Origin: a virus
Direction: 5' to 3' (one strand)
Virus record (IMG/VR): IMGVR_UViG_3300045988_055118
Coordinates: 8,622 to 72,621 of that record
DNA: 64,000 bases
The translations under genes and the position numbers were made by a program. Below the pieces are notes generated by a model. It had not been told where the DNA came from. It searched no databases and saw only the letters and a list, made by a program, of their open reading frames with translations. Positions 2,111 to 59,622 of this stretch are shown in pieces. How positions within the stretch are numbered: position 1 is the first letter of the stretch; the number at the start of each line of letters is the position of its first letter.

Positions 2111-2193
2111 AGCAGTACTTTTTTGCCAATCAACGGTTTTTAGAAGTAATATCCTACGATTTATCATCTAAATCGATTTTTATATTGTATATC

Positions 2194-3501
2194 TTAAGAT
2201 ACTCTATTCAGAGTCCTGAACCCGACATAGGAACTGGCATAGCCGACGCCAATGCTAGAATAGAAATAGCCGAGACCCGCACTGCCGCCATAATCCGCGC
2301 CGCCGCCCACCCGCAGCGTGCGAAGCGCTGTGCTGCTTGCGTTGCAGTAATGGTAATCGCAAATATAAGTAGTAGCACTTCCTCCAACAGTGGATGGAAT
2401 TATTTCAGCGGTTTCACCTAAGTCAAATGCCTTAATATAACCATCAGATGCTACTTCGTATCCTGCAACGGTTTTCTCTCCAACTACGTCGGTAAATTCC
2501 GATACGTTAGTAGTTGTATAGACAGTGCTAATCTCATTAGCAGCTGCTCTCACTATAACTACTCCGTCCAGGTTAGTCCAAATGTCTCCAAACGGATTAT
2601 CGAACCCTCTCCAGCGAGGTACTTTAAATGTATGAGTTGCTACTGTATTTGTGCCATCTTGAGCTGTACATTCTGGAATAACTAAATCTTTTACTCCAGT
2701 GAAGTTACCAAATTCATTGCAGTAACCACAAGGCGTAAGTGGATATGTTGCATTATATCCTGACCAACTTGTAGCTGCGTTAGCCCAATCTGTAACTCCA
2801 AGTCCCAAACCCCCTTGATGATATCCATCCGCAGTTAACTCTGCATTATATGCAGCCTAAGAATTAAAATTAGCATATTCAATGACATAATTCCAGTAGA
2901 ATATCCATTTGTAATATTCATAGCATAGCAATTCTGAACCAGCATTTGTTGCATATGTTCTCATAGTAGCTCTAGAAATATTAGTTCTAGGCTTTCCTAA
3001 ATCACTTCTGAATATATCCTTAGTTTCTAATTCTGTAGTTAGATAATCATCGTAGTTAGCTCTATTTCCTCCACCTCTAAATGCAGTAGTAGTATTAACT
3101 ACTGATACAGCTTTTGGAGTTGCGGAGACTGTGGTATCAACTGTACTTCTGTATGCATCTATTAATAGTTCAGGAATTTCTACCCATGAATCATCAATTT
3201 TGACAGTAGAAGTTCTAACCCATCTTTTGTTTCCATCGCTGCCAGATTTTCCATAAAATTTAGGAGTATTAACTCTTACTGTTCCATCAGTTCCATCTAA
3301 GACAGATGGAGTTTCTCCGTCTTCTTTATAAGACCAGTCATCTGGAAACAGATAGTAATTTACTACATCATTGTTTGCTACACAACCTCTATACGCTGAT
3401 TGAATAGGAAGAGATTTATGTAGCAAAGGATTACCTATTCTAGTAAGTTCCGGAGATGCTACTGTAACATCCCATTCTACTCCATAGGAATATAAATCCA
3501 T
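2194..3501 (-). CDS. DGR target protein (C-terminal variable domain), TAG-interrupted; N-terminus extends further upstream through additional in-frame TAGs
   Basis: ORF-track pieces 2857..3501 and 2194..2808 are in the same frame, separated by TAG at 2857-2859. The C-terminal 30 aa are encoded by VR1. Terminates at TAA 2194-2196, which is followed by further in-frame stops (TGA, TAA, TAA), so TAA is a real stop here. Confidence 0.65.
2207..2220 (-). other. hairpin (TTCAG-AGTC-CTGAA) immediately 3' of VR1; candidate DGR target-recognition hairpin
   Basis: Perfect 5-bp stem with 4-nt loop directly abutting the VR end, analogous to the hairpin/cruciform downstream of VR in characterised DGRs. 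Confidence 0.4.
2221..2311 (-). repeat. DGR variable repeat 1 (VR1) at the 3' end of the target gene
   Basis: 91-nt match to TR. 20 differences, all at positions where TR has A. Locally GC-rich (gccgccgcccacccgcagcg) in an otherwise AT-rich genome. Encodes GGGADYGGSAGLGYFYSSIGVGYASSYVG. Confidence 0.8.
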
Positions 3502-4460
3502 ATTACTATTTAGCTCAGTAATCTACTTATCAAGCTTTTGTTGTGCCTTCTACAATTCTTCCCAAGCCTCATTTAGCGCTGTAAATTGCTCTTCTAGCTT
3601 AGAACTTGAATCTGCCCATTCAGCAGTACCATCTGCTGAGAAAACTAGCATCTATCCAGATGCTCCTCCAGATGGAATATGTTTATTTCCAGAAGTAGTT
3701 GGATGTACATAATTATTAGCATTATTAGCTATAGTACTTAACTTTTCCTTCTCAGTTTCAGTATAATTGGCTTCAGAAAGTCCCTTTCCTAACTCCTTAT
3801 CTACTTTGCCTTCAAGCTCACCCTTAGTAGCTAATTCACTAATATCCTAATGCTCAGTTAAATATCCACTATCATTCTGTAACTAAGAAGTTTTAGTTGG
3901 AATTGCATTAGCCTTGGCATATGTCGTATCTATAACATTTCCAGCACCATCGTAAGTAGCTTTTAAATCGTATGTGGTTTCCCCAACCTTTATAGATTTG
4001 ATTGCTGCCATATCATTGTATTATTAAAGTTTCATCAACTACATCGTGATCTATTCCCTCTATGGAAGCAGTTAGGTCCTCAACAGCCTTCTACAATTCT
4101 GCTTTAGTAGCATAGTTCTTGAGAACTTCCTAGTCTACTCCAGAGCCTCCTCCTATACTTCCTCCAACAACTTTTACTGGTTTGGCAGAACTCTTAAACT
4201 GTCCTTCAATATAAATTGTTCCCATATTGTTTAAAATATTAATTGTTCATTTTCTCCATCTACCTCTACACTAGAACCTGGCTATAAAGCGTCTATCTTT
4301 TTCTACAATTCGGCTACGGCCTAGCTAATTAGTTCTTCTACCTCAGCTTTGGTGTAGTATCTCTCTATAAGATATTCGCTCCTAACATATCCAGTATCTT
4401 GTAAATCTTTTTCTCCATAGGTGCAATAATAAGTATCTTCTTCAGTCTTACTATTCTCAA

Positions 4461-4652
4461 CTAGGTCATCATAATCAGCTTGTGGTAAGCATACAAGTTT
4501 TGGTACTTCTTCAGTAATAGCAACTTGCTTGCCTCCAGCAAATAGCCTGTTATCTTCTGTGGTAAGTTTAACAGAACTCTCAATAACTTGCTCAGTTCCT
4601 GTTTCCTCAGAAGGTTCTCCAGTTGTTCCCTATTGTACTTCTTTTTCTCCAA
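4461..4652 (-). CDS. fragment of TAG-interrupted late (structural) gene
   Basis: ORF ends at TAG (4461-4463). Surrounded by a dense run of in-frame TAGs on the minus strand, with no long ORF in any frame under the standard code. Confidence 0.3.
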   Translation of the reverse strand: MEKKKYNREQLENLLRKQELSKLLRVLLNLPQKITGYLLEASKLLLLKKYQNLYAYHKLIMMT

Positions 4653-5829
4653 TTTTCTAAATAGTAATATCAGAAGTTTCTACTGATGTAGATTTCAAAA
4701 GCTCAGTGCTAAATTCTTTAGCAGCAGCAGCCTAATCATCCTGATATTTTTTCTAGGTAACAAATATGAAATCATCATCTCCGGTTTCAGGAGAGTCTCC
4801 CCTTAAACTTTCTTTTGTTACGTAATCTTCGGCTATCTAATCTGATAAATCAGATAATGACTATTGAGTAGCATAAGTAGACTGAGCATTTTCCTTAGTA
4901 AGAAATTTGTCATCAACCTGCTAAATAGTATAATAAGCCTTAATATCTTCTGTAGTAACGTAGTTTCCAAGTTTTTGCAAACCTTGAACTATTTCATCAA
5001 TCTACTTCTTGGAGTAATAATTTGTAGCAACCCAGGACTGATATTGATTGGTAGTATGATAATTCTAATCCAAATATTCCTTAGTAATATAAACCTTTGC
5101 ATCATTTGTGACGTCATATACATAGTAATATGTATCAGGCTCTACCGTCCCTTCCTCTACTAACTTTAGATACTCTTCTTCAGTTAATGTTACTAAGTTC
5201 GGAATATCCGATTCAGTAGCAATCTAATCTTCACCTATAAATAATCCTTCAGACCTAACGTCTACTACTAGCTAGCTCTCTCCCTCTACTACAGGAGATT
5301 TTATCTATCCAACAGTGATGCTTTCTAAGGAACCATCTCCATCTACCTTAAGAGTTTTATCTAACTCGTCTTGGATGGCCTACTAATCTTCCTCATATTC
5401 TTTCTTTGTAACGAAGACAAAATCATCTCCTTCCATTCCCTCTCCTCTAAGACTTTCTTTAGTAACGAAAATATCGTCTGTTTCTTCCTTAGTATAATAC
5501 TTAGTCAGGGATAGAGCTAAAAAATCATTAGAGACATAATTAGTAGTTAATTCTTCCAGTGTAGCATAATCTGATAGGCTGGCAATAGTGTTATCTAAGT
5601 CTGTTCTAATCTATACTACAGTAGTATTAAGGGCCTTCTGTTTTAATTGCTCTTCTATCTTTTTTCCCCATTCCGAGGATAGGTAAAACTAGTCATCGTC
5701 TAAGCTATCCTCATATATATAATAATATGTCTCAGCATGAAGATACGTTTTACTTTCATCTATGGGCCTAAAATCGTCTGTAGTATTCTCAGACCATTCT
5801 TTATATTCAGCCTCTGTACAGGTGATTAT

Positions 5830-6069
5830 CTAGATAGATTCATAGGATGCTTTCCATCCTTCCTTGTATTTAATCTTAGACTTATCAATTAGCATATAAA
5901 TATTTCCGTTATCTATGTTAGCAACGGTCATACCTTGATAAGCATACTTCTCTGGAATAGAATAAAGTTCGTCTAAGTTATTAACGACTGTTCTATTATC
6001 GAGAGGCTTCGGAGTTTCTACGGTTAAAGCGACACCTAAGGTAGCATCACCTGTATATTTAAATGCCAT
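5830..6069 (-). CDS. fragment of TAG-interrupted late gene
   Basis: Ends at TAG 5830-5832; same pattern as neighbouring pieces. Confidence 0.3.
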   Translation of the reverse strand: MAFKYTGDATLGVALTVETPKPLDNRTVVNNLDELYSIPEKYAYQGMTVANIDNGNIYMLIDKSKIKYKEGWKASYESI

Positions 6070-7016
6070 TATTGTGATAGAATAAAGTTAATTTGATGTG
6101 GCAATGCTGAGGAGTAAGTATCTTTCTTAGTCCATACCTTGTAAGTAAATCCATTTATCTACTCGGTAGACGTTTCCCAACCACTTAGGTCTACATTTAA
6201 ATATCCAAGTCCTCCATCTACGGTAAATGAATTTAACTATGTGTTACTTCCTGGCAATTTTATAATAGCCTTACCACTTAGTGAAAATGTGATAGTTCCA
6301 GACGATTGTCCAAAAGGAACTAGCGCCTATTTAATCACACTATCAGTATTACCAGAATACCAAGGATATGTGGCTACTACCTAAGCGGTAGCGGAAATAG
6401 AACCAGCTTCTACTCTCTTATCTGTAACTTCTCCTTTATTGTTTATCAAATATTCTCCAGCGGCATAACTCACTGTACCAGAGTGAGTATAAGTACCAAT
6501 AGAATTATATGTATCAGACTCTACAGGAGAACTGTTATAAGTAATAGTTTCTTGTCTGTCAGTTTCTTCTCCAGCATCATTCTTTATAAATGTAAGTGTA
6601 GGAGTTAATAAAGCAGTTCCTACTTCTACTATTTGAGAAGTAAAACTATAATAAAGCTATGGGTATACTAAATCTCTAACTACTGTTGGAAATAGTAAAG
6701 TATCAATAATCTCATTAAAGGGCTTGCCCTTAAGTTTCTCTACTGTAGTCCCTTCAATTACTGTTGAAGTAGTATCATCTGGGAGTTCTGTCTAATAAGT
6801 AGCTATAGTTTCTAAGTTAGTTTGTATATTAGTAATACTTTCAGTATTAGCTTCTACTTTAGTATTTGTCTCTTGTTGTGCTTCCTAAGTTTTCTATACT
6901 TCTTTCTTTGTTTCTTCTAGAGCAGGTTCAAGATTCTTAACATAGATACCTGGAAGGATAATAGAAGAGGTTTCCTCTCCAATCTCCTATTCTATTAAAT
7001 GAATAGCATTATCTTC

Positions 7017-7355
7017 CTAAGTAGATAAAATCACCTCTAAAGAATTATCTTCCTTTAGTTCTATAGTTTTGGAATTTTGGAGACTATTCTTAATCCAATT
7101 AAGAATGTTTTTATCAACATCTATATTCTCAATAGCATTATTCAACTCAACTATAGCTTCATTGATTTTTACTATTTCTTCAGATAGATTATTAATCCCT
7201 TTTCTATTAGTATCAATTTCTCGTTGTAAATCCTCCTTCAATACAGATATAGAAGTTCTAATATTGCTTATATCGACTTTCAGTTCTTCTATTGCTTCTG
7301 TATTAGATTCATATTCACTAATAAAGTATAGGGCATAGTCTAGGGCATCCTTCAC
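7017..7355 (-). CDS. coiled-coil protein fragment (tail fibre/needle-like), TAG-interrupted
   Basis: Heptad-rich sequence EELKVDISNIRTSISVLKEDLQREI...; GTG start in track; ends at TAG 7017-7019. Confidence 0.35.
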   Translation of the reverse strand: MKDALDYALYFISEYESNTEAIEELKVDISNIRTSISVLKEDLQREIDTNRKGINNLSEEIVKINEAIVELNNAIENIDVDKNILNWIKNSLQNSKTIELKEDNSLEVILST

Positions 7356-8041
7356 AGTATTAATACCTTCTGCAACGTCACTAGTATAGGTCCATTTTTG
7401 TTCTATATACTATACTAGGTCTTTTTGCAGTTCTATGGTTCCACTAATGTTTCCCCACAATAGACTCTACTCATCAGCAATACCTAAGTTCTTTCTTACT
7501 TTAGCTTTTTCTAGTTCTGTCCTATATTCTCCTAAATAGTTATTTCTTAAGAGAGGTATAGGCTCACATTTTATAGGCTTACCCTTTTTACCACAAGGCA
7601 CTATATCTGCGTTACTTACCGAAGTGTAAATAGACTGTATCATTCTAGTTTAATAATTGCTATTTAATAAATTCGTGATTATCTAGTCTTACAGGTAGGT
7701 TAATAAAACAAATTAGATTAAGAATATCTTGATAATCTGGTTTATATCCCTTTTTGAGTTTTCTTAGAAAATCCTCATACCTTTTAATAGCCTTTCTCTT
7801 AAGAGCATCCACAACCTATACGTTTATGTCCATGGTGGTGATTATCACAGAATCCTCCACAGGTACGGAACATCGCTAGTAATCTCTCAGCCTCCATGAA
7901 TTGTTTAAAGCATATTAAATAATCTATAATGTTAAGAGTCATCCATATGAAATCTCGAGCAAATATATCTGCTTCCTAATCTCTAGTTAGACACTTATTT
8001 AATAAAGAGTCAAAGAGTTTCTTACAGTAGTTAATATAACA

Positions 8042-8347
8042 CTATTGCAGATTTCCTGTAAAGAACACGTCTACCTTACATTTTTTGATAGTAGTTCCTT
8101 CTATATTTCTTTCAAGGATTTCTTTTACAGTACATTCCTCTAGCTCTCCATCTACTTCTTTATATAGCTTCTCTCCATCAGTTATATAGATAGTTTCATA
8201 ATACTCCTTGTATTCATCAGATGAATTTTCATACCATTTCATATTAGGAAGAATTATGTGGTCTACTACATAATATCCATCTTCTTTCACCTTAAATGTA
8301 CAAGAGTCTAAATCCTCTGTATGGTCATTGAGAAGTACGTCTATCAA
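8042..8347 (-). CDS. fragment of TAG-interrupted late gene
   Basis: Ends at TAG 8042-8044. Confidence 0.3.
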   Translation of the reverse strand: MIDVLLNDHTEDLDSCTFKVKEDGYYVVDHIILPNMKWYENSSDEYKEYYETIYITDGEKLYKEVDGELEECTVKEILERNIEGTTIKKCKVDVFFTGNLQ

Positions 8348-11300
8348 AGTAGCATCTCCTATACTAACTTTTATGATAGTATTTAGGGTAGCACTTTCAC
8401 TATACTTATAAGAATCATAGGAAGTTACTACCTCTAAATCTTCATCAATATACTATCCATATTCCTTTGAAAAGTCTTCAATAGTTATTTCCCCGTTAAT
8501 CTGGGTATGTATATCAATACTAAATTCCATATTATAATAATTAAGACTCAGTAGTAGGCCATTGACCATATTGAGCAGGAGTAGAAAATGGTTTCCACTT
8601 ACCTTCTTGTCGTATACGTCTAGACATAAAAACTGAACTAAATGATAAACTAATATCTTGAGGATAGTCTGTCCATGTATATGACTAACCTTCAGGGGTC
8701 GGTGGTAGACTATTTAACTTACCAGCTGGTTCCCCATTCCAATAATAATTATAGTCATATGCTTTAGTTGGAGTAACAGTCGTTGTTTCATGTCCTTCCG
8801 AATCTACATATAGAGGATTTCCATCCTCATCTGTTTTCTGCTTATACTCAATAACTGGAGTTATTCCCTCAGTTCTAGTGTATATATTCTAGATAATAGT
8901 AGAAACATCGCTTGCTACAATCTCATAAATAGTAGTTCCCTGAGATTCGTCAGCCCCCTAGAAAGTAAATTTAGTTCTTTTCCAGATATATGGATTCTCT
9001 TCAGTTGGAAGTTCAAAAGTATCAGTCCACTATTTAGTAGATAATTTTATCTCAGATTCTTCAGCAGTGTCAGCAGGTAAGTAATGAATCTTAATAATAA
9101 TATTATTTACCGCTTCACTAGAACCAGAAAGGTCTGACACCTATTTAAATAGTTTCTTTAAATCTTCTTCCACATTTGATTTAGAACCAGAAGCATTACT
9201 AATAATTACTGAACCATCTGAAATAGGATAAATCTATTGCTAATCCTTATTATATACAATTGTTCCAGTTGCCATATTAATGTATTTGTCTTATTTTGTC
9301 ATTATATGGATTTCCATCATGAAGCTAAGCCAACTCTATTTCAGTTCTCTTTTCTTCTATATCCATTTGTCTATCTTTATAAGTAGAATCAGACTGAGCT
9401 TTAAGCCAGTTAACTTTATATTCTAACTGCATCTTCTACTATTCTAATCCTAGTCTCTATTCATCTAAGCTTTCAATCTTTTGCTGAGCTTTCTATAATT
9501 CTTGCTATAACTACTGAGCCTATTGAGAAGTTTCTTCTAATTTTTCTTGTAGTTGCTGAAGCTGATTATTTTCCTCTTTGCGAACTTGAACAGCTTTCTT
9601 AACCTTATATTTAAGGTCTGTCAGACTCTTAGATGTAAGAGCCTCAAAAATAATATCTGGGTCCATCTGTTGACTTTTTACGAACTCTGGAATGATTGCT
9701 TTTATAGTCTATAGATCTTCCATCACTTCTGAACTAGCAGTAATATGAATATCGTAGTCAGTAACAGTAAAATACTCAGGAAGTGCGGTGAATATCTGTT
9801 GATATTTATCCCCAAGTATAATAGTTCCAGTTAATCCTTTCTTATAAGTAACTTTAGCCTAATTAAGACTATCTAGTAGTATCTCGCAGGTTATTAAATC
9901 CATCTGCTAAAAATAGTGCTTAGTTACTATATACGAGTTAGCTACTCCCTACTTAATATTAGTAACTGCATCTCTAGTTTCTATACCGTTAAGTCGTTCC
10001 CTAAATACTCCAGTTATTGATGATGTAGTTTGTTCTACTGATTGAATAGCTAATTCAATAGCCTATACAGCCTATGCTTTTAAGGTATCATCAAATCCGT
10101 TATATATCTAGTTTGGAGCTTGCTGTCCATCATTCCTACCTTCTTGGCTTGAGTCTATCCACATGATACCACCTTTTTTATAGGCTAACCATTTTTGTAC
10201 TCGTTCTGGCCATTTAACTCCTAAGTTGGTAGGCAACAGAGACATATCCATAATAACTCCGGCAGTACCACTATTAGCTATTAGATTATCTCTATAATAG
10301 TTTAATAAGTCGTATCTATCCTACAGATGTGCACATTTTAATATAAGAGAATAAGGCTACTAAGAGCGATTTAAGAAATATACTCCATTTACCGATAAAG
10401 AACAGAAGTTGGGATTATCTTTAGACCTCATAACAGTCTTGTCTAATCCTCTAAGAATATATATCTCTTCTCCTATTCTGATAGTATTGTATCTCTACAT
10501 CACAAAATCATCATCTGTTTCAATCCATTCAACATCATAGACTGGGATTAACTAGAACCTATGAGCACTATATTCATTGTCTGGATAGCCGGGAATGGTT
10601 TCATGATTCTAATCTTCATTTACTACTGTACAAGTATCTCCATATACTCTTCTATAAACAGCAGCTGAATCATCAGCTCGCCATTCATCTTTTAGTCTTC
10701 TTAAATCTTCTCTAGATATTTCTTTGCCATATTTAGCTAAAATCTAACTCTTACTCATCCACTTTCTTACTACAACTCTATATGAGTTCCTTACATATGG
10801 AGATTCTGGATTTCTATCAACAAATGTATTAAGTGGGTTTAATACCTCTATTTCAATATTAGTTCCAGAAGCCGATGATTTCACTCTAAAGAATGTATAA
10901 CCAGTAATTAATAAGTCTGTTAGTAACTAACGTAACTTAGTAATTAAATCGGTTTCTCTGGATTGCATAATATAATGTAATATATTCTAAGCTGCAATTT
11001 CATATTGAGAAATAAAGGATTGGTCAATATCCTATATAATTTTATCTAACTAAGTCTTTACAGCTTTATCAGTAATATCCTTGCCATCAATAAACTTAAG
11101 AATTGAATTACTTAAATGGTCTTTCAAAAACTTTACTATTCCCTTGGTTATTTCTAGCTATTTTTCTCTTGTTATATTACTGATAGTATCTGAATCTTTG
11201 CAAGAAATTTTCGGAAGTATAGGAGTTCCTAAATATTCTCCAACTAGGGCATCTACGTGTTTCTTTAATAAAGGCGTAAACTCTACCGAAGTGGGGCTAC

Positions 11301-11389
11301 CTATTCCGAAGTTTTCTTCCAGATAACGGAACTATTCAGGATCTCTTTTACCATTATAATAATTATAAGCTTTCTGTAACTCATACTTA

Positions 11390-11851
11390 TCATATACAAG
11401 TTCCGCAATAGCCTCGTTTGTCTTGTCTATCAATTCCTTCTCTTTCATAACATAAATTATGTTGTTCTGGAGGAAGTTTAGTAGCGTTATAATACTTAAC
11501 TCTTTGTAACTTCCTACTTCTTAATTCTTCCTTAATAAATGGCAGAAATTCTTCGTCTGGTAAATCTGCTATTATTACTAATGGCATTTCTGACCTATCA
11601 AAGTTAAAAGAGACTTTATACCCAACTGGGTCTAAACTCTCAATATCTAGTCCGCCTATATACTCCATTTTGTACAAGTCCCTCATATATTCTAGGATCA
11701 CTTGTTTCAACTCTGTATGGGTCATCATATTCGTTTCTTTGCATATTAAGTTCAGGAGTTTTCTTAGTTGGAATAACTCCAAATCTTTTAATTCCTCTCT
11801 CGTCGTAATAGTAACCAAAATCTTGGAACTATTCAACTTCTTTCTCCACAA
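11390..11851 (-). CDS. hypothetical late protein (ends at TGA)
   Basis: 153-aa ORF; stop TGA at 11390-11392, showing TGA is used as a terminator in the late block. Confidence 0.4.
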   Translation of the reverse strand: MWRKKLNSSKILVTITTREELKDLELFQLRKLLNLICKETNMMTHTELKQVILEYMRDLYKMEYIGGLDIESLDPVGYKVSFNFDRSEMPLVIIADLPDEEFLPFIKEELRSRKLQRVKYYNATKLPPEQHNLCYEREGIDRQDKRGYCGTCI

Positions 11852-12062
11852 GTACGGGCTGTCTTCCTGATAGCTCTTGGTCTGCTAACTCAGTCATACC
11901 TACAGCGGCTACAATATCATACTTACCCTTATTTTCATCATTATATGCAGTGAACTATTCTAGCATTTCTTCGAACCATATAGTATGGCAATAGTCTTCT
12001 ATAAAGGCGGCTGTTAAATCAGTATGCTATTCGATTATAGTTTTTGTAGCAGGAGTTCCATA

Positions 12063-13769
12063 CTATTTAGTAGTTCCATTTCTAACGTCAGTTAGAGTAG
12101 CTCTTGGGCGCTTCATAAAATAGTTAAGGCATCCTTTTTCTCTAGCCCAAGTAACCATACCCATACGAGTAGCTTCTATATTTATTTTACAATTATAATA
12201 GCGAGCTAAACACATAGCTATTTTATAGGCTTCTCTGATGTCTCCAGGTCTATCCTTGTACATAGCAACATACTGAGGGTCATTCATACCAAATGCACGT
12301 TTCTTAATCGTTATGCAGAAATCAGACGGGTCTCTGGTTTCCTTAGAAGTCTAATTCGCTCCAATATCAATACCGTCTATACCTGCTACGTATAAGTCTC
12401 GCATCTCTTTATAAACTGGAACTTCAAAATCCTAGCCATTATCTTCTGCCTCCTATCTAAGCTTTTCCATTTGTTCTTTATATAAGTCAGACCATATTGG
12501 ATGCTCTAGAATTTTTACTTTACCATTGCTGTTAGGAATCCATTTAAAACCATCAATGTTATCCTAAGTATGTTTATTATTTTTGTAAAAATAATCAATA
12601 TAACCACATTCGGGTCTTGGACCAATTTGTTTAAGTCTTATATTAGCTATCTATTCGGCAACTAAAATTTTATTAAACTTATTAATACCTTCTAGATTAA
12701 ATGCTTCTTCTGCATTCCAACAACGTTCAGCACATTTCTTTAGGTAGTCTTCTGGTACAGCTAATAGATTATCTCGCTCCTCCTATAAGAATTTCTTATA
12801 TTCCACAGTATTACATACTCCTCTGTGGTCCATAAATTCTGGATTCAAAGATTGTATAAAGTATGGAATAAAGAATCCACTCTCTATAGTAGTCCCATCC
12901 TAAGTCCAATTATGTCTAAATGGAAGAATCTTATATGCTCTTGGATTATAGTAAATCTTTTTTAAGCCCTCTAGAGGAGCACCCATATCACCGCCAGTAC
13001 CTCCAAACAACATTGTTCCACGAGGCATACCTTGAACTTCACAAAGTTCTTGACCTTGTACCACAGCGGTATCAAGTCCAGGCCAGGAACCAGCTTCATC
13101 ATATATTAATAAATCTACACGGTCTCCACGAATGTTAGATGGTTTAGCTCCGTTAATTGCTACAACCTCAGATTTAAATCCTACGTCTTCAAACTAACCA
13201 TTTATTTTGATTTGTTTACCTGATTTCTTTCTCAAATCCTGGTCAATAAGTCGCAATTTAAAAAATCCTCCTCCAGTACAGGTATTTAAGAATGTAAGAG
13301 CATTGTCAAACTTACTAAAGGTACCCTTAAGGAAGGTATCATTAAAGCAAGTAATCATAACCCTACTTCTTCTAATAACAGAGTACATACGAGCAGAAAG
13401 AGAGGCGTTTATTTCAGAGAATCCAATAGAACGAGCTTTCATTAAAGCTGCGTGCTTGTGTAGCACCCTAGCCATCTATAGATAATGAAAGAACATATAA
13501 TGTGATGCAAAGAATATTGGGAAGTCATTATCAGTACCCTCACCAGAGGCTTTCTACTAGTCAATAGTAGGTAACTAATAGAAATTTAAGAAGAAGTAAT
13601 TATCTCCAGTAATGGTGTATCCATTAACTGTCATTCCATACTTACATCTTCTATATTGCTCTTTCCAAAATTCGTTGTACCGCTTACTATCTCTAAGGTA
13701 GGGACAGTATTGACCAGTTCGTTTATATACTTCCCTAGTCTCGGTAAACCAATCTGGATTAAAGTCCAA
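12063..13769 (-). CDS. candidate terminase large subunit, TAG-interrupted
   Basis: ORF-track pieces 12063..12287, 13194..13475 and 13575..13769 share one frame and each ends at TAG. KARSIGFSEINASL resembles the RQxG(K/F)S/T terminase ATPase P-loop region. The C-terminal piece (RPGDIREAYKIAMCLARYY...IEATRMG) is terminase-nuclease-like. The assignment rests on motif resemblance only. Confidence 0.3.
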
Positions 13770-14819
13770 TCCATGAGTTTCGTCAATAGGTCTGTATCCA
13801 GTTATTTCATAAGATAAGGTAGGGTCAAATACTTCTATTTTATCTCCTATTTTAACATCCCAATAGTCAGAATTTCTGACCCTTTCCTCTCTTATTTTCT
13901 ATACTAATTCTCTAGCTTCTTTAGCATCCTCTTTCTATTCTTTTTCTCTTACCTAATCTACAATATTCTATATTTCTTCAGGTAATATCTTTTTTCTTGG
14001 CATAATTAAAAGTCTCCTGGGTCAAAACCATCCACAGCTCCAGCTCTAACAGTAGATTGTTCAGTAAGTTCTTTCTTAACCTAGTCTTCTAGTGTTATGA
14101 GTTCTTCATGAACTTTGTGAAGGGTAGCCATTTCCTTCATTACTTTTTCAGCCTGGAATACTGGCTTGCCGTTATTATCACGCTCATTTAAATCTACAAT
14201 AGTTTCGAAATAATCAATAAACTAGTCTGCAGCTCTTTTAGCTGCTTCTAGTAATTTTATTGACTTGTTTGAATCTTGTAACGCTCTGTATTTCCTACAA
14301 GCTTCTCTAAATATAGGGTCATTAAATTCTGACTCTGTCAATCCAGAATCACTAATAGCTTCGTCATGTCGTTCATGTTCCGAATACTAACTGTACGGAC
14401 TTTTCCAGTCTATAGCTAAATAAATGTAAGATAGTTCTCTAGTAGCTCTATCCTTTTCTGCAGATTTATCCCTCTAGATTAAAGCCTTAAATTCCTTAAC
14501 TAGCAATATCTCTGGTTCATTTATTTCTAGCTATTTAGTTAAAGTGTTATAGTTAAATACATTCATAATCATTAATCATTATCATACACATTAGATAATC
14601 TTATTATTTCTTTTTCATTTTGGAACCGCACTTATTGACTTTCATTTTGGAACCACAAGCGTCTTTCTTAGCATATTGTTTTCTGTCAGGAACCCATTTT
14701 CCTCCCTGGAAATTACCCTTATGTCCCTTATTGGCCATAGTTTCCTAATCATTGTATTTATTGATTGATATAGAATCTCTTGAGGCTTCGTCTCTAGCAG
14801 ATTTCATATCTTTCTTATA

Positions 14820-19571: not shown

Positions 19572-19589
19572 AACTATTAATTTTGGCGT

Positions 19590-19661
19590 TGCCCTACTAG
19601 GATTCGAACCCAGACTAAATGATTTAGAGTCATCTGTGCTGACCATTACACCATAGGGCAG
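19590..19661 (-). tRNA. amber suppressor tRNA, anticodon CUA (reads UAG), Gln-type
   Basis: Manual fold: acceptor TGCCCTA/TAGGGCA with U1-A72 (Gln hallmark), D arm GTGT/GCAC, anticodon stem GATGA/TCATT, loop CTCTAAA (U33, CTA, A37), T arm CTGGG-TTCGAAT-CCTAG. D and T arms nearly identical to the genomic tRNA-Gln(TTG) at 34204. Confidence 0.8.
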
Positions 19662-47463: not shown

Positions 47464-49488
47464 ATGAATTTTAAAGATTTTAAAGATTTCAAGAAAGATG
47501 TAGAGTCTGCTTTCAATGCTATGATTGCAGATAATTTATTTGTAGTTAATGTAGACAAAGACCTTTTGTGGATGAGTTATCTTCTCTCCTTTGAGGACGA
47601 AACAATTCGGCAAGATCACAATTGTAATGCTTGTAAGTCTTTCATACGTCACTATGGTAAGGTAGTCGCTATAGACCCTCAAACCTACAAGGTGAAAACC
47701 TTCTGGGATGATGTTCACACTCCTGGCTATGAAAAGACCGCATCTGATTTAGCTAAGCTCGTTAAGGAAGCTGGAATAGGAGATATATTCATTCAGGATG
47801 TTAATGAGTTTCACGGTTGTGACCATAATGTGCAACTTCTTCCTGATGGAACTACTAGAACTTGGACTCACTTGTACGTGACTATTCCTAACAAGTTTAA
47901 ATTCAACAAGAGAGTACATCATTTCGATTCTGCCGCAGGTTATCGCGGAGATGTTAGAGCTAGAGCTGGTGTCTTTGAACGCTCTCTTTCCGAGCTTAAA
48001 CTAAGTGCGGTAGAAACCGTAATTGAGTTGATAGAGGATAATAATCTCTATCGCGGAGAAGAGTTCCTAAAGACTCTGCAAGAGTTCAGAAGAACTATGC
48101 TTGAGGCCGATAATCTCTCACCAGAGGTTCGCACTAACTATTGTTGGTTTAACTTCAAATCTCCAATAGCTAAAATTAGAAATACGGCTATGGGAACTCT
48201 ACTGATTGACTTAAGTAATGGTGTAGACCTGGAAAGAGCTGTTAAGTCTTATGAGAACATTATGGCTCCATCTAACTATAAGAGACCTACTGCTCTTATT
48301 ACTAAGAAACAAATTGAGGCTGCTCAGAAGAAGGTTGAAGAACTTGGGTTAACTGATGCCCTTCCTCGCCGTCATGCTCGTGTAGAAGATATTTCTGTAA
48401 ACGACGTTCTGTTCGTAAATAGAGACACTCGTGCACGTATGAAAGGAGGTATATTTGACTCTTTAAAAGAGACCTCAACGGTTAATCCTAAAGAGTATAC
48501 CAAAGCTACTGAAATTTCAATTTCGGAGTTTGTAACTAATGTATTGCCACACTCTAAGGATGTGCAAATTCTTGTTGAGAATAAGCATATTCCTAATTTT
48601 GTTACCCTAACTGCTCCAGAGAACCCTGATGCAGGTCAGCTGTTCAAATGGAAGAATAACTTCGCTTGGGTGTATAATGGCTCTATGGCGGATTCATTCA
48701 AGGAGAAAGTAAAAGCAGCAGGTGGTAACGTAAATGGATTCCTAAGATGTTCTCTACACTGGTTTAACTATGATGACCTTGACCTCCATGTAACAGAACC
48801 TGGTGGTAATGAAATCTATTACGGGTATAAGAGAGGATTAACTGGTGGTACACTAGATGTAGATATGAACGCTGGTTCTGGTAAAACCAGAGATGCAGTC
48901 GAGAATATTATCTGGACTGACCAATCTAAACTCAGAGCAGGTCAATATGTAGTGAGAGTGCATAACTTCTGCAAAAGAGAGCATATAGACTTTGGATTCG
49001 AGGTAGAAATCGAAATCAATGGAGAGCTTCATAAGTTCAACTATGATAAGATGGTGCCAGACAGAGAATATATTACGGTAGCAACTATCAAGGTAGATTC
49101 TATTGGTAATATAACCCTAAGTCCGGTAATTGCCGAAGGTGCAACCTCATATAAGTCTATGAACGAGTGGGGCATTGATACTATGCGTTTCCAAACTGTT
49201 TCTTGCATCATGTATTCTCCAAATTATTGGGAAGGTAATGAAATAGGAAACAAGCACCTATTCTTCATGATTGATGGATGTAAAAATCCTGACCCAGTTC
49301 GGGGATTCTTCAATGAATATCTGAGACCCGATCTCGAAAAAGATCATAAGAGAGTATTCGAAGCTATTGGCTCTAGAGCTAAAGCAGAATACAACGATAA
49401 CCAGTTGAGTGGACTAGGATTCTCTAGTACGTCTCACGACGAGGTTGTAGTTAAAGTTGATAATAAACCATTTAAAATTAAATTCTAA
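47464..49488 (+). CDS. large hypothetical protein (674 aa)
   Basis: Long intact ORF, TAA stop; no motif recognised. Confidence 0.55.
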   Translation: MNFKDFKDFKKDVESAFNAMIADNLFVVNVDKDLLWMSYLLSFEDETIRQDHNCNACKSFIRHYGKVVAIDPQTYKVKTFWDDVHTPGYEKTASDLAKLVKEAGIGDIFIQDVNEFHGCDHNVQLLPDGTTRTWTHLYVTIPNKFKFNKRVHHFDSAAGYRGDVRARAGVFERSLSELKLSAVETVIELIEDNNLYRGEEFLKTLQEFRRTMLEADNLSPEVRTNYCWFNFKSPIAKIRNTAMGTLLIDLSNGVDLERAVKSYENIMAPSNYKRPTALITKKQIEAAQKKVEELGLTDALPRRHARVEDISVNDVLFVNRDTRARMKGGIFDSLKETSTVNPKEYTKATEISISEFVTNVLPHSKDVQILVENKHIPNFVTLTAPENPDAGQLFKWKNNFAWVYNGSMADSFKEKVKAAGGNVNGFLRCSLHWFNYDDLDLHVTEPGGNEIYYGYKRGLTGGTLDVDMNAGSGKTRDAVENIIWTDQSKLRAGQYVVRVHNFCKREHIDFGFEVEIEINGELHKFNYDKMVPDREYITVATIKVDSIGNITLSPVIAEGATSYKSMNEWGIDTMRFQTVSCIMYSPNYWEGNEIGNKHLFFMIDGCKNPDPVRGFFNEYLRPDLEKDHKRVFEAIGSRAKAEYNDNQLSGLGFSSTSHDEVVVKVDNKPFKIKF

Positions 49489-53975: not shown

Positions 53976-54992
53976 ATGAAGAAAATTTTTAGTATTATTT
54001 GTTTGTGTTTAATGTGCGTGTTTGCTAGCGCACAAGTTGTTGAAACTGGAAGTTTGAAAGATAACTGGTATGTTTCTGGTAATGTAGGTACTACAATTTG
54101 GGACAACTCAAGAAGTTGGGCTGAACCTCGTGATGTATTAGTAAATATTGCGGTGGGTAAAGAAATTACTCCTATCTTTGGACTAGAGTTAGATATGATG
54201 GCAGGTATGAATCAAGGCAGTGAAACGTTCTTCGATTCCCATAACCTTACAGCTAATGTAACTACTAATCTAACTAATCTTATTTGTGGATACGAAGGCT
54301 CTAGACGTTTATTTGAGCCTGTATTACTGATAGGTGCTGGTTGGTATCATACTTATGGTGATGTTTATAATAATGTATCTGCAAGAGGTGCAATTAGATG
54401 CAACTTTAATATTACTGATAGTTGGGCACTAAATGTTACTCCAGAGTATATGCTACTTCCAAAGACTACTCCTCTAAATCATGAAGTAAATGTTTATATA
54501 GGAGCCACTTACCGGTTTAAGTCTAATAAAGGAAACTTTCCTATGATGAAACTATATAGTGACGCTGAAGTAGAAAGTCTTAATGCTGCTATTAACGAGT
54601 TGAGGGTTAAGAATAGCGAATTGGAATCTCGTAAACCAGTAGAAATAATTAAGACTGATACTATAGTAGTTACTAAGGTAGAACTTCTTACACCTAAAAT
54701 TCAGTTTTTACAGAACTCTTCTGAAATCTCTACAACTTCTAATGTTGCAGTATCGGAGTTAGCAGCTTATATTTCAAATAGTGGTAAGTCATATATGATT
54801 GAAGGATATGCTTCTGAAGAAGGTCCAGTAGATTTTAATGACAACTTAGCTGTAGCTAGAGCAGAATCTATGAAGAAGGCCCTTATCAGTTATGGCGCTC
54901 CAGAGGATAAGCTTATAGTTAAAGGCTGCGGAAGCACTACTGAGTTTGGAGATAGAGAATTTAACAGAATCGTAATCGTAACAGAACAATGA
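53976..54992 (+). CDS. OmpA-family outer-membrane protein with signal peptide
   Basis: MKKIFSIICLCLMCVFASAQ signal. N-terminal beta-rich region, coiled-coil linker, C-terminal OmpA-like domain (GYASEEGPVDFNDNLAVARAESMKKAL...KGCGSTTEFGD). Confidence 0.6.
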   Translation: MKKIFSIICLCLMCVFASAQVVETGSLKDNWYVSGNVGTTIWDNSRSWAEPRDVLVNIAVGKEITPIFGLELDMMAGMNQGSETFFDSHNLTANVTTNLTNLICGYEGSRRLFEPVLLIGAGWYHTYGDVYNNVSARGAIRCNFNITDSWALNVTPEYMLLPKTTPLNHEVNVYIGATYRFKSNKGNFPMMKLYSDAEVESLNAAINELRVKNSELESRKPVEIIKTDTIVVTKVELLTPKIQFLQNSSEISTTSNVAVSELAAYISNSGKSYMIEGYASEEGPVDFNDNLAVARAESMKKALISYGAPEDKLIVKGCGSTTEFGDREFNRIVIVTEQ

Positions 54993-55257: not shown

Positions 55258-55572
55258 ATGGACGTAAAGATTATGTTGATAAGTGATTGTATAGGAGTTG
55301 TGCTCTATGCGCTCCTATACTATACACTTTATCATACCTATGAACTAGATTATTTAGGTTCTGGAAGGTGGAGAAGGTGGAGAAGAATATCTGTGCCTGG
55401 TTGGGCTGTAGTTATAGCCCTAGTGAGCCTATGTCTTCCTCCTGTAGCTGTCTCGCTTTCTATAGTAAGCTGGATTATATATATGCTTAAGTTTCTCGGC
55501 GATAAATATTACGAGGTAGACGTTTCTTTTATTAAGTTTTTATCAAACTCAATACATGACACGAATATTTAA
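55258..55572 (+). CDS. small membrane protein
   Basis: Three hydrophobic segments. Confidence 0.4.
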   Translation: MDVKIMLISDCIGVVLYALLYYTLYHTYELDYLGSGRWRRWRRISVPGWAVVIALVSLCLPPVAVSLSIVSWIIYMLKFLGDKYYEVDVSFIKFLSNSIHDTNI

Positions 55573-56068
55573 ACATCTAATTAGGATTATTAAGCATAAA
55601 TACTGGGTAGCACGCTATTGTTTCCAGTTAGGTCTTTATTGGCAGGGAATAGTACATGACTGGTCTAAGTTTAGCTATACTGAATTTAGTAGGTCAATAA
55701 AGTATTGGGACGATACTATTAGTCCTCTAGCTAATGAGAAAAACATACACGGATATTCTGAAACCTTCCTACATCATCGAGGAAGAAATCCACATCACTA
55801 TGAATATTGGGTTCATAGTTTAGATGAAGGAGGAGTTCCAGCGAAAATGCCAAGAAAATATGCTTTGGAATTAGTCTGTGATTATCTGGCTGCTGGGAGA
55901 ACCTATAATAAAGATTTTACCTATGGGAGTGAGTACAACTGGTGGATTAAATTTCTAAGTTCACCTAGAGCTATACATCCCGAAACCAAGGACTTCGTAA
56001 CTAAATGCTTTAGGCATTTGAGTGCCGGAGGTAATATTAAATATTTATTGAAAATTGACTATGAGTAA
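55556..56068 (+). CDS. hypothetical protein (His-rich, possible HD-like metal-dependent hydrolase)
   Basis: VHDWSK ... FLHHRGRNPHHYEYWVH. Confidence 0.35.
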   Translation: MTRIFKHLIRIIKHKYWVARYCFQLGLYWQGIVHDWSKFSYTEFSRSIKYWDDTISPLANEKNIHGYSETFLHHRGRNPHHYEYWVHSLDEGGVPAKMPRKYALELVCDYLAAGRTYNKDFTYGSEYNWWIKFLSSPRAIHPETKDFVTKCFRHLSAGGNIKYLLKIDYE

Positions 56069-56879
56069 GATAATAGGGCAAGACAAGTTAATTAAGGAAG
56101 TTAATAGAATATTTCAGGTATTTGTAAATAGTAATTGCAAGATAAGACCGCACTTTATTCTTACAGGTGAGAGCGGGTCTGGTAAGAGCTTTACTATTAA
56201 ACAGTTATGTGATATGAATGAACTTAGCTTTCTAGAAGTTAATGCAGCTCAAATAACTAAAGAGGGTATTTCTGGAAATAGTTTAAGCAAAATTCTATCT
56301 CCACTTGTTAACTATAGTCACACACCTATTGTAGTCTTCGTAGACGAGTTTGATAAACTTTTCATCAACGGAAACACTAATAGCCAACTGGCTAATGAAT
56401 CTACTGCCAGTGTACAGAACGAGTTTCTCAAACTTTTAGAGTCTGATACTACTAGTGTTTTTGGCGATTATGGGAAGTACATATCAGTCCCTATTGATAA
56501 TGTACTATTTGTGTTTGCTGGAGCATTCAATAATGAGCCTCACATTACATTAGATAGACTAAGAGACTTTGGAGTTAAAACAGAGTTTCTTGGAAGAGTA
56601 GGATTAATCTACAATACTAAACCTCTCACTCTAGAGGATTTGTATTCTATCTTGGAGTGTTCAGACTTGTTGCAGAATTATCTTGACTTATTCTTTAATG
56701 TAAATAGAGAACAAGTCATTAGTGATTTGAAAGGGTATCTCGAAAGTTCTTTTCGCAATAATACTCTTGGAGCAAGAACAATTAATACTCTTATTCACCA
56801 ATACTTTATCAAAGGTGGAAAACTCGAAACTGAAGAAGTAAAAGAAATAACTTTTAACAAAAAATTAGAATGGAAATAA
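56055..56879 (+). CDS. ClpX-like AAA+ ATPase (AAA+ module only, no zinc-finger N-domain)
   Basis: Walker A GESGSGKSF, Walker B VVFVDEFDKLF, then SVQNEFLKLLE...NVLFVFAGAF, colinear with ClpX (IDEIDKI...QQALLKLIEG...ILFICGGAF). Confidence 0.5.
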   Translation: MTMSKIIGQDKLIKEVNRIFQVFVNSNCKIRPHFILTGESGSGKSFTIKQLCDMNELSFLEVNAAQITKEGISGNSLSKILSPLVNYSHTPIVVFVDEFDKLFINGNTNSQLANESTASVQNEFLKLLESDTTSVFGDYGKYISVPIDNVLFVFAGAFNNEPHITLDRLRDFGVKTEFLGRVGLIYNTKPLTLEDLYSILECSDLLQNYLDLFFNVNREQVISDLKGYLESSFRNNTLGARTINTLIHQYFIKGGKLETEEVKEITFNKKLEWK

Positions 56880-58420
56880 TTAATGCTACAGATGGTTACA
56901 AGTTGGGCCATCACAGAATGTACCCCGAAGGTACTGAACAAGTTTATAGTAACTGGACTCCTAGAAGTAATAAATACTTCCCAGAAGCAACCGAAGGTTC
57001 AGTAGTATTTGGTATTCAATACCTAATCAAAGAATATCTCATTAAACAGTTTGAGAAAAACTTCTTTAATCTACCAAAGAAGGAAGCTGTGGAGATGTTC
57101 TATCGTAGAGTAAACAACTTTGTTGGTATTGAATCCGTTGGGTACAGACATATTGAAGCTTTATATGACCTTGGGTATCTACCAATTCGCATAAAGGCTC
57201 TTCCTGAAGGTTCTGTGTGCCCTATTCGGGTTCCCATGATGACCATTACAAATACTCTACCCGAGTTCTTTTGGTTAACTAACTACTTAGAGACTATTAT
57301 CAGCTGTACCTTGTGGATGCCATGCACATCTGCTACTAGAGCTAGGCTTTATAAGAAAGAGCTACATCGTCATGCTTGCAAGACTGGTTTTCCAACAGAT
57401 GTAAATCTTGGTTTTTGTTGTCATGATTTCTCAATGCGAGGTATGGCGGGAATGGAAGCCGCAATTATATCTGGTATGGCGCATATGACTTCTTTTGTGG
57501 GAAGTGAAACTATTCCAGCTATTGCTGCTTTGGAAGAATATTATGGAGCTAATTCAGACGAGGAATTGATTGCTGCTACAGTTCCAGCAACAGAACACTC
57601 TGTAATGTGTGCTGGAGGGGAGGAAGATGAGCTGGGCACTTTCAAACGTCTAATTAATGATTTGTATCCTTCTGGGTTTGTTTCTATTGTATCTGATACT
57701 TGGGATTTCTGGAATGTAATTGAAAATTTCTTGCCCAAGCTGAAGAAAGACATTATGGCTCGTGATGGTAGAGTAGTAATCCGTCCTGATAGTGGAGACC
57801 CAGTAGATATAATCTGCGGGTTGAGAACTAATCCTCACTTCAATACCAGAATGAAAGAAGGTAAGTATTATTGCTGCTATGCTCCGTTTAATGACGATGC
57901 AGAGTATGTTGAAGTGTCCGAAGGTCAATATTATGGGGCATATTATATGCTTGGTAAAATCTTCGGATGGAATACTACTTCAAAGGATTACCGTTATCCT
58001 AGCACTAAGGTTGGTCTGCTTTATGGAGATTCTATTACTCTGGAACGTCAAAAGCAAATCTACTTGAGATTAGAAAACGCTCATATGGCGGCTTGTAATC
58101 TCGTTCTGGGAGTAGGTTCATATTCCTATCAGTATGCAAGTAGAGATAGTCTTGGGTTTGCTATTAAGGCTACTGCTTGCGTAGTAAATGGCGAATTGAA
58201 AGAAATCTTCAAACATCCTAAAACTGATGATGGTACTAAGAACTCTTTGAAAGGTTTGATTGCTGTCTATAAATGTCTGGATGGGAAGTATACTGCTACC
58301 GACCAGGTCTCAATCGAGGAGGAAAAAGAGGGATGCTTAGAGACTGTCTTTGAAGATGGTATCTTGAAGAAAGAATATTCTCTTGAAGAAATCAGACAAA
58401 GAATTGACCATGGACTTTAA
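56870..58420 (+). CDS. nadV: nicotinamide phosphoribosyltransferase family protein (NadV/Nampt; possibly the Namat variant)
   Basis: ATDGYKLGHHRMYPEGTEQVYSNWTPRS and IRPDSGDPVD match Nampt signatures ([37 protein letters not shown]); 516 aa. Confidence 0.7.
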   Translation: MEIINATDGYKLGHHRMYPEGTEQVYSNWTPRSNKYFPEATEGSVVFGIQYLIKEYLIKQFEKNFFNLPKKEAVEMFYRRVNNFVGIESVGYRHIEALYDLGYLPIRIKALPEGSVCPIRVPMMTITNTLPEFFWLTNYLETIISCTLWMPCTSATRARLYKKELHRHACKTGFPTDVNLGFCCHDFSMRGMAGMEAAIISGMAHMTSFVGSETIPAIAALEEYYGANSDEELIAATVPATEHSVMCAGGEEDELGTFKRLINDLYPSGFVSIVSDTWDFWNVIENFLPKLKKDIMARDGRVVIRPDSGDPVDIICGLRTNPHFNTRMKEGKYYCCYAPFNDDAEYVEVSEGQYYGAYYMLGKIFGWNTTSKDYRYPSTKVGLLYGDSITLERQKQIYLRLENAHMAACNLVLGVGSYSYQYASRDSLGFAIKATACVVNGELKEIFKHPKTDDGTKNSLKGLIAVYKCLDGKYTATDQVSIEEEKEGCLETVFEDGILKKEYSLEEIRQRIDHGL

Positions 58421-58847
58421 TCATCCTTTTGGGAAAGAAGCTTGCAAGAAACGACTATTAGAAGAGTATCATAAATACGGAAAGCTAATAGTCGCTTTCG
58501 ATTTTGATAATACTATTTTCGATTACCATAATACTGGCGGAGATTATAGTTGCGTTATAGAACTACTTAAAGAATGCTCACTTCTAGGTTTTGAAATGAT
58601 TTTATTCACCACTGATGAAGATGATTATAAAATTATGGCAAAGCAGACAATTTGTATGCGATTAGGAATAGCAAATATTACTTCTAATACTTTATCTGCT
58701 CCAAACATTAGTAGTTCTATATTCTCTAAATCTAAGAAACCTTATTACAATATCCTCCTAGATGATAGGGCAGGTCTGGAAGAAAGTTATGAAATCTTAA
58801 AATATGTAGTAGATGAAATTAAACTTAATCAACAAGGAAATCAGTGA
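58383..58847 (+). CDS. HAD-superfamily hydrolase
   Basis: LIVAFDFDNTIF (DxDxT motif I). Confidence 0.5.
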   Translation: MKKSDKELTMDFNHPFGKEACKKRLLEEYHKYGKLIVAFDFDNTIFDYHNTGGDYSCVIELLKECSLLGFEMILFTTDEDDYKIMAKQTICMRLGIANITSNTLSAPNISSSIFSKSKKPYYNILLDDRAGLEESYEILKYVVDEIKLNQQGNQ

Positions 58848-59622
58848 AATTAAGTACAATGTTACTAGATTTCCTGATGGAGAGCCTCAGTTTTTCCTTA
58901 CTGAGGAATTAAACAGAAAGGAATCTATTGATGTCATTTGTAGAATATCTAATACTGAGGATTTATTCCTCTTAGTGCAAGTAGGAGATATTTTAGATAG
59001 ACAAGAAGTAGAATGGGATTTACACATTACTTATTTAATGTCTATGCGTATGGATAGAGTAATGAGTTTTAATCGTCCATTCTCCTTGAAAGTAGTATGT
59101 AATATGTTAAATAGCTTAGGCTATAGAAACATATATGTTCTTGAGGCACATTCTAGTAGAACTTTTCATCTTCTTGGTGACAGATGTTTACCTTGGGAAT
59201 TTGGACACCACTCTTGGATTCCAGCCCAAAGTAATATCGTGTTCCCAGACCATGGGGCGAAGGACAGATATGGAAGTAACTATTCTCACTATGGTTATTT
59301 AGTCTTCAAAAAGGAAAGAAATCTAGAGACTGGAAGAATTGAGTCCTTTGAAATAGAGGAGTCTAAGAATTGCTACTATTCTACATTTGTGTTCATTGAT
59401 GACTTGTGTGATGCCGGAGGAACTTTCCTAGGAGAGCTTAAGGTTCTCAAAGAGAGATATCCAAATAGCAAGTTTATCATAATCGTATGTCACGCAGTTA
59501 ATGATAAAGGTCTGATTAATATGTGTAATAATTTTGACCAGGTTATTGTATCTAATTCTCATAGGGATATTAATTATCGTCCCAGCAACGAGAACTTAAC
59601 TGTAATAGACGTTTGTAAATAA
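58813..59622 (+). CDS. ribose-phosphate pyrophosphokinase (PRPP synthetase) family protein (Prs, or the ADPR-PP synthetase Adps variant)
   Basis: RFPDGEPQF (cf. Prs RFSDGEV), VLEAHS, FPDHGAKDRY, VFIDDLCDAGGTF (PRPP-binding loop). Confidence 0.6.
   Translation: MKLNLINKEISEIKYNVTRFPDGEPQFFLTEELNRKESIDVICRISNTEDLFLLVQVGDILDRQEVEWDLHITYLMSMRMDRVMSFNRPFSLKVVCNMLNSLGYRNIYVLEAHSSRTFHLLGDRCLPWEFGHHSWIPAQSNIVFPDHGAKDRYGSNYSHYGYLVFKKERNLETGRIESFEIEESKNCYYSTFVFIDDLCDAGGTFLGELKVLKERYPNSKFIIIVCHAVNDKGLINMCNNFDQVIVSNSHRDINYRPSNENLTVIDVCK

Follow-up and report, generated by a model that had tools for sequence, protein, structure and literature searches.

The subject of this work is a three-gene locus at positions 56870-59622 of a 64,000-nucleotide stretch of viral DNA (positions 8,622 to 72,621 of the IMG/VR record IMGVR_UViG_3300045988_055118), which was analysed as a whole and is referred to below as the window. 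There is one near-identical record only, a 25-kb fragment of human faecal origin, and the source is an uncultured human-gut phage. An initial annotation, made from the letters alone, had placed Nampt, HAD and Prs genes at this locus. The three open reading frames (ORFs) are indeed present there, profile searches assign them to these families, and the strings quoted at that time (ATDGYKLGHH, IRPDSGDPVD and VFIDDLCDAGGTF) all occur in the window proteins. The genes lie on one strand and overlap in succession, by 11 nt between the first and the second and by 35 nt between the second and the third (Table 1). On near-identical metagenomic contigs, the ATG at 58410 is the start that gene callers assign to the HAD gene. 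We argue below that the locus probably encodes the two enzymes of the NARP1 pathway of NAD+ reconstitution, Namat and Adps, with a HAD-superfamily phosphatase between them that has not been described as part of this pathway.

The first protein matched phrog_448 (1e-182), NF006629 (524 bits) and the Pfam families PF04095 and PF18127. Its top match in the PDB was the crystallized Namat of SPbetaL1 (9W5X/9W5W, 488 bits), while human Nampt and the Nampt of Xanthomonas (Xcc) scored 227 and 198 bits in the same search; the second-best match was 9KE8, for which no paper could be traced. Namat enzymes are defined by the conserved catalytic core of Nampt together with an adenine 'selectivity clamp' (SCH + SCL), in which the SCH motif reads GS-X-phi-X-phi-X-phi-TRD (X being aromatic) and the third residue of the SCL loop is Arg, Lys or Tyr, accompanied by a stacking residue (Lan et al., PMC12774641). 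The SCH region of the window protein is GSYSYQYASRD, with Ser in place of Thr, to be compared with GSFTYQYNTRD in SPbetaL1 Namat and with GGALLQKVDRD in Xcc Nampt, where the clamp motif is lacking. The SCL reads PRSNK35Y36; K35 aligns with R40 of SPbetaL1, and the order of lysine and then an aromatic residue is the one described for Bas63. The catalytic residues D13, Y15, F189, S190, R192, H245, R306 and D308 (SPbetaL1 numbering) are all kept. Relative to SPbetaL1 the protein has an insertion of about 25 aa, at residues 318-355, following IRPDSGDPVDIICG. It is 64% identical to the homologue from phage cr126_1, which is labelled 'Adps-associated' in the table of Osterman et al. Moreover, its gene is separated from that of the Prs homologue by a single gene, while NARP1 has been delimited by a Namat-clade homologue within 10 genes of Adps. 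As judged from these residues and relatives, the Nampt homologue is a Namat.

The third protein matched phrog_619 (1.5e-51) and, at 5e-16, the Prs model TIGR01251, whose curated cut-off is 113 bits. On this model it scored 58.5 bits, in comparison to 422.7 for E. coli Prs, 138.5 for Bas63 Adps, 106 for SPbetaL1 Adps and 54.9 for cr126_1 Adps; the window protein thus scores like, or under, the experimentally proven Adps enzymes. Against the Prs equivalog models it reached at most 48 bits, the cut-offs being 296-536, so it does not belong to the canonical Prs. We also built a hidden Markov model (HMM) from 15 Adps sequences of Table S1 of Osterman et al., with Bacteroides-phage sequences excluded, and on this model the window protein obtained 161 bits. 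The catalytic lysine is kept, as KKERNLETG of the window aligns with HK162QRNFHTG of SPbetaL1. The pattern K-x-R-[ND]-x-x-T-G is common to all Adps displayed from the alignment, while E. coli Prs reads DKRRPRANV at this place. The ribose-phosphate loop is IDDLCDAGGTF. The protein is 47% identical to the homologue of cr126_1, which belongs to the Adps clade according to Osterman et al.; cr126_1 (MT774391_00044, _00046), DAC15 and BPS10C have already been tabled as members of this clade with Namat nearby (Osterman et al., bioRxiv 10.1101/2024.02.11.579819). Among annotated sequences, those of cr126_1 and DAC15 are the nearest to the window protein. Judged by profile scores, motif and listed relatives, the Prs homologue is Adps-like and not a canonical Prs.

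The initial annotation had preferred NARP1 to the NadV-NMNAT salvage route, partly because no NMNAT gene was seen, and had suggested a check for NMNAT and Nudix genes. The profile comparison falls on the NARP1 side, by the clamp of Namat, the sub-threshold Prs score, the Adps lysine and the clade-listed relatives alike. Neither an NMNAT nor a Nudix gene was found in the 64-kb window. A Pfam scan of the 39 window ORFs gave no NMNAT, Nudix or Macro domain (including no match to PF01467 or NUDIX), and no HxGH motif, Nudix box or MacroD motif occurs in the six frames of the window with TAG read as Gln. Searches by tblastn with NadR-like, NadM-like, NrtR, MacroD, ARH and PnuC proteins did not produce a match in any frame. 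The Macro-domain phosphatase Adpp, which in the NARP1-AP variant lies within two genes of NARP1, was likewise not detected in the window by an Adpp HMM or by Pfam.

The middle protein matched phrog_1238 at 4.6e-15; the label of this phrog, 'phosphoheptose isomerase', is a mislabel. It carries the motifs of the HAD superfamily, I (DxDxT), II (S/T), III (K) and IV (DD), on a Rossmannoid fold, and its AlphaFold model is confident (predicted local distance difference test score, pLDDT, 89.6). In an alignment of 25 homologues, D31-x-D33-N34-T35, K110 and D118-D119-R120 are invariant and the Thr of motif II is conserved. A sequence search of solved structures with this protein gave no match; more distantly, it resembles in structure sugar bisphosphate phosphatases and 5'-nucleotidases, among others. 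Family-wide, 851 cluster representatives of this HAD were counted.

The initial annotation regarded the HAD enzyme as an extra component. The genes that accompany its relatives were assessed in 139 loci, whose HAD proteins were grouped at 70% identity into 33 clusters. In 24 of these the HAD gene stands next to Adps and/or a Nampt-family gene, always on one strand; 'extra component' was therefore right but understated. One of the 24 is a Mucilaginibacter cluster whose partners are canonical. With N for Namat, H for HAD and A for Adps, six gene orders were observed: N-H-A, A-H-N, A-N-H, H-A-N, N-A-H and H-A. Both partners are adjacent in most of the 77 IMG/VR loci carrying the HAD (70 by our count); among 59 loci of bacterial genomes and metagenome-assembled genomes (MAGs), the figure is about 35. 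The HAD was found in 82 phage-database records, among them Bacteroides and uncultured gut phages, 15 Lak megaphages and 54 Bacillus phages. Annotated examples are cr126_1 (Namat-HAD-Adps, as in the window) and Bacillus phage BPS10C (Adps-Namat-HAD). In Prevotella Lak megaphages of 540-550 kb the HAD gene adjoins Adps, with Namat more than 200 kb away (for instance, 420737-422031 and 195703-197172 in MK250021). The HAD is an optional insert, as the Crassvirales cr85_1 and Kolpuevirus 'frurule' keep an adjacent Namat-Adps pair without it. Since Adps homologues are rare, being present in about 3% of phage records (1478 of 50,697), the probability that HAD and Adps meet by chance is negligible. 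The same triad is also found in bacteria: in chromosomal clusters of Tamlana, of a Saprospiraceae MAG and of Paenibacillus, Adps, HAD and Namat follow NrtR, and in Paenibacillus PnuC and a NadR-like gene come after the triad. We found no papers on a HAD enzyme in NARP1 in a literature search. Across this wide range the HAD is conserved as a companion of Adps and Namat, undescribed as part of the pathway.

The locus also varies within the population. In seven loci Namat is 100% and Adps 99% identical to the window, but the HAD only 68-69%, a pattern which suggests that the middle gene alone was exchanged for another allele. In other contigs deletions take out all or most of Namat and join the upstream AAA gene to the HAD gene.

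The locus may be compared with several described systems. Like NARP1 (Osterman et al. 2024, bioRxiv 10.1101/2024.02.11.579819), it has both enzyme families in a single operon, without an NMNAT, and conserves the catalytic and clamp residues. It differs in the gene order, which is Adps-Namat in NARP1 and Namat-HAD-Adps here, in the embedded third gene, in an Adps further from Prs than the tested ones, and in the insertion and the Glu at position D215 of Namat. NARP1-AP (Adps-Adpp-Namat; Osterman et al. 2026, bioRxiv 10.64898/2026.01.28.702374) is likewise a three-gene operon with an inserted phosphatase, and some relatives of our HAD share the order Adps-phosphatase-Namat. However, Adpp is a Macro-domain protein and not a HAD; it acts on ADP-ribose-1''-phosphate made by aRES (Osterman et al. 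2026), and the relevant host families, namely Bacteroidaceae, Prevotellaceae, Bacillaceae, Flavobacteriaceae and Paenibacillaceae, contain aRES systems. In a further extended form of NARP1 the accessory enzyme inserted in the operon is RyDEP, a RyR-domain glycosidase which converts 2'/3' cyclic ADP-ribose signals to ADP-ribose (bioRxiv 10.64898/2026.05.28.727677), whereas the window protein has a phosphatase fold. The HAD is at most a weak match to the BT_0820 family of phosphatases (PDB 2OBB, NF046079), with 20.4 bits against a cut-off of 165, and falls outside it; no described function for BT_0820 was found in the literature search. Finally, bacterial nrtR-prs-nadV operons (Rodionov et al. 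2008, PMC2330246) contain NrtR-regulated pairs of Prs-like and Nampt-like genes, and the bacterial triads mentioned above sit directly after NrtR, a regulator of NAD metabolism that is freed from DNA by ADP-ribose and by phospho-ADP-ribose (PMC2330246). On the other hand, a phosphatase is not mentioned in that work, and the window is phage DNA without NrtR. NARP3 was also considered and rejected as a relevant system, since it is made of PnuC and NadR and is unrelated.

Taken as a whole, the three-gene locus is best explained as a NARP1-type NAD+ reconstitution operon with an accessory HAD phosphatase, a reading that we hold to be probable. That the core, Namat and Adps, constitutes NARP1 appears very likely, and a functional tie of the HAD to the pathway appears likely. 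According to the homology and the conserved residues of the two enzymes, Adps would use ATP to pyrophosphorylate ADP-ribose (ADPR), the product of host NADases of the SIR2, TIR or SEFIR type, at its 1'' position, and Namat would then exchange the pyrophosphate of the product, ADPR-PP, for nicotinamide, giving NAD+. The restored NAD+ would blunt NAD+-depletion (abortive infection) defences. The HAD, to judge by gene linkage, would be a dedicated accessory phosphatase of the pathway, which may strip phosphate from forms of phosphorylated ADPR that Adps could not use and so return ADPR to the pathway. In this it might match the Macro-domain Adpp without being homologous to it. We suggest, only tentatively, a phospho-ADPR species as its likeliest substrate, because the inserts Adpp and RyDEP both yield ADPR, and because the HAD of Lak megaphages stays with Adps; the aRES systems of the host families and the response of NrtR to phospho-ADPR as well as ADPR would agree with it. 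Candidates would be ADPR-1''-phosphate from RES-type NADases, 2'-phospho-ADPR from NADP+, and monoesters arising from the unstable ADPR-PP or from ADPR-cyclic phosphate.

Several observations weigh against this reading. With respect to the core, position D215 is Glu in the window Namat, as it is in 48 of 82 relatives, and the 64 kb searched for NMNAT are a part of the genome, related IMG/VR contigs measuring about 105 kb and about 186-193 kb. With respect to the HAD, NARP1 genes are missing from the 6 kb around it in 9 of the 33 clusters (three such loci end at a contig edge), no residues were found that tell the NARP1-linked from the unlinked proteins, both groups sharing all motifs, and no feature of the sequence points to a substrate. 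In five proteins of the family the HAD is joined to a nucleoside 2-deoxyribosyltransferase-like (PF15891), DUF4406 or GIY-YIG domain, and NARP1 genes are absent from their phage-like surroundings. With regard to the substrate, these partners suggest nucleotide chemistry without settling the matter, and the fusions to nucleoside 2-deoxyribosyltransferase-like domains hint at a more general nucleotide phosphatase. There are also loci in which the HAD and a Macro protein occur together. Although an Adpp-like Macro gene is missing from 137 of 138 loci, one MAG contig (L135, 4139-6200) has, in this order, such a gene (95 bits on the Adpp HMM), Adps, a pair of small ORFs and a HAD gene cut by the contig end, and in the Saprospiraceae MAG (L098) the triad is followed by MacroD and two ADP-ribosylglycohydrolases. 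Thus, the HAD is not a simple replacement for the Macro phosphatase, and we rejected it as a strict substitute for Adpp; since both can occur at one locus, their substrates may differ. Moreover, in four Mucilaginibacter loci the HAD gene follows a NadM-like NMNAT-Nudix gene, a NadV with GGALLQKVDRD and a Prs nearer to E. coli Prs than to Adps, and its role is therefore not restricted to the ADPR-PP route. From these observations, the substrate may be one common to both routes or one distinct from ADPR-1''-phosphate. Candidates would then be 2'-phospho-ADPR, 1- or 2-phosphates from the decay of phosphoribosyl pyrophosphate (PRPP) or ADPR-PP, inorganic pyrophosphate (PPi) and nicotinamide mononucleotide (NMN).

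The alternative that survives best, although we regard it as unlikely, keeps the NARP1 core and has the HAD act on something other than phospho-ADPR: on PPi, whose removal would pull the Namat reaction forward, on NMN formed by Namat from PRPP in a side reaction, or on decay products of PRPP or ADPR-PP of the ribose 1,5-bisphosphate type. The canonical NadM-NadV-Prs set of Mucilaginibacter would have PPi, NMN and PRPP decay products in common with the NARP1 route, and the Macro domains beside the HAD in L135 and L098, the sugar bisphosphate phosphatases and 5'-nucleotidases among its distant structural neighbours, and the deoxyribosyltransferase-like fusions agree with such a role. However, hosts already possess an inorganic pyrophosphatase, a nucleotidase acting on NMN would squander the product of the pathway, and the association of the Lak HAD with Adps, not Namat, fits a supply of substrate to Adps; besides, both characterized NARP1 inserts produce ADPR. 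It is improbable that the HAD is a general phage nucleotide phosphatase hitch-hiking at the locus, with no functional tie to NAD+ reconstitution. The clusters without neighbouring NARP1 genes, the likeness of linked and unlinked proteins at the motifs, and the fusions and contexts outside NAD metabolism would be expected of such an enzyme, but its adjacency to the pathway genes is held in six gene orders over Crassvirales, Lak megaphages, Herelleviridae and the NrtR-regulated clusters of three bacterial lineages, the rarity of Adps leaves little room for chance, and the coding regions overlap. Classical nicotinamide salvage, in which Prs makes PRPP, Nampt makes NMN, an NMNAT of the host or an unseen one of the phage completes the route (as in NARP2 or prs-nadV) and the HAD is incidental, is very improbable: both proteins do fall in the Prs and Nampt families, PRPP can still serve Namat enzymes in vitro for the synthesis of NMN, the NMNAT search spanned 64 kb of genome only and nrtR-prs-nadV operons have long been interpreted as salvage, but the Prs homologue has 58 bits against the cut-off of 113 (E. 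coli Prs, 423), the Nampt homologue carries an adenine clamp absent from canonical Nampt, the relatives belong to the Adps-associated clade, the window lacks NMNAT and Nudix genes, and Osterman et al. found no phage with both pathways.

With respect to the NARP1-type operon with an accessory HAD, the genes immediately upstream are also of interest. An AAA-ATPase gene overlaps the Namat gene by 10 nt and, since this gene and the three that follow overlap serially, the simplest interpretation of the block is a single transcription unit. A scan for promoter and terminator consensus sequences gave counts not above those of shuffled controls. The ATPase gene is present in some near-identical contigs and missing from others.

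Elsewhere in the window we observed a minus-strand module with almost no standard-code ORFs of at least 200 aa, in which readthrough of TAG, but not of TGA or TAA, yields eight long ORFs (250-794 aa). There are 28 tRNA genes in the window, including those with the anticodons CUA and UUA listed in Table 1. The module is a case of TAG stop-codon recoding of presumed late genes. The Namat, HAD and Adps genes contain no in-frame or terminal TAG and end with TAA or TGA, which would fit expression before recoding, as expected of an early counter-defence module. A 2H-domain protein is encoded in the tRNA gene array; it could serve in tRNA repair or in opening cyclic phosphates such as ADPR-cyclic phosphate. 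The window also encodes an SPFH/Band 7 protein, an OmpA-like outer-membrane protein and a core-like protein of 674 aa. We do not class the phage as crAss-like, as the nearest relatives of this last protein are from phiCbK-type and other large phages and only the NARP1 genes resemble those of Crassvirales.

Table 1. Genes and other features of the window, the three genes of the locus first.
Feature	Position	Strand	Remarks
Namat (nicotinamide ADP-ribose transferase, Nampt family)	56870-58420	+	516 aa, stop TAA
Small capless HAD-superfamily phosphatase	58410-58847	+	145 aa, stop TGA; alternative TTG start at 58383 gives 154 aa
Adps (ADP-ribose pyrophosphokinase, divergent Prs family)	58813-59622	+	269 aa, stop TAA
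AAA+ ATPase (phrog_5534)	56055-56879	+	directly 5' of the Namat gene
Block of DUF5662 protein and AAA+ ATPase	55556-56879	+	DUF5662 member has an HDWSKF...HH motif, HD-like in look
OmpA-like outer-membrane protein	53976-54992	+	apparent signal peptide; identical gene of locus L141 annotated OMP_b-brl + OmpA
674-aa protein	47464-49488	+	phrog_1735, 804 bits; best named relatives, 43-44% identical, in Caulobacter phiCbK-like and other large phages
2H-domain protein	35276-35686	+	136 aa; PF08302 (tRNA-ligase cyclic phosphodiesterase), 31 bits, cut-off 23
SPFH/Band 7 protein	31031-32989	+	652 aa
tRNA, anticodon UUA	21946-22016	+	
tRNA, anticodon CUA	19588-19660	-	
TAG-recoded module	600-14021	-	

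The two-enzyme core of this locus is a further member of a known system, with close relatives already catalogued, and the HAD partner is what is new. Depletion of NAD+ is among the commonest antiphage strategies of bacteria, and NARP1 is the main known metabolic counter-measure. Each of the earlier accessory genes exposed a new layer of the arms race, since the Macro-domain Adpp led to aRES and RyDEP to the signals of Thoeris; a third accessory enzyme gives a handle on other fates of ADPR during defence. It is possible, though on balance doubtful, that the HAD represents a third extension of NARP1, which would salvage phosphorylated ADPR other than the Macro substrate, such as 2'-phospho-ADPR or the decay products of ADPR-PP. 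If this were true, there would be either an unrecognised NAD(P)+-depleting defence in Bacteroidota and Bacillus hosts, or a metabolite repair function built into the pathway, and the triad would also be an NrtR-controlled housekeeping route of ADPR recycling in bacteria. The bacterial 'nrtR-prs-nadV' operons, once described as salvage operons, may be NARP1-type cassettes for the recycling of ADPR.

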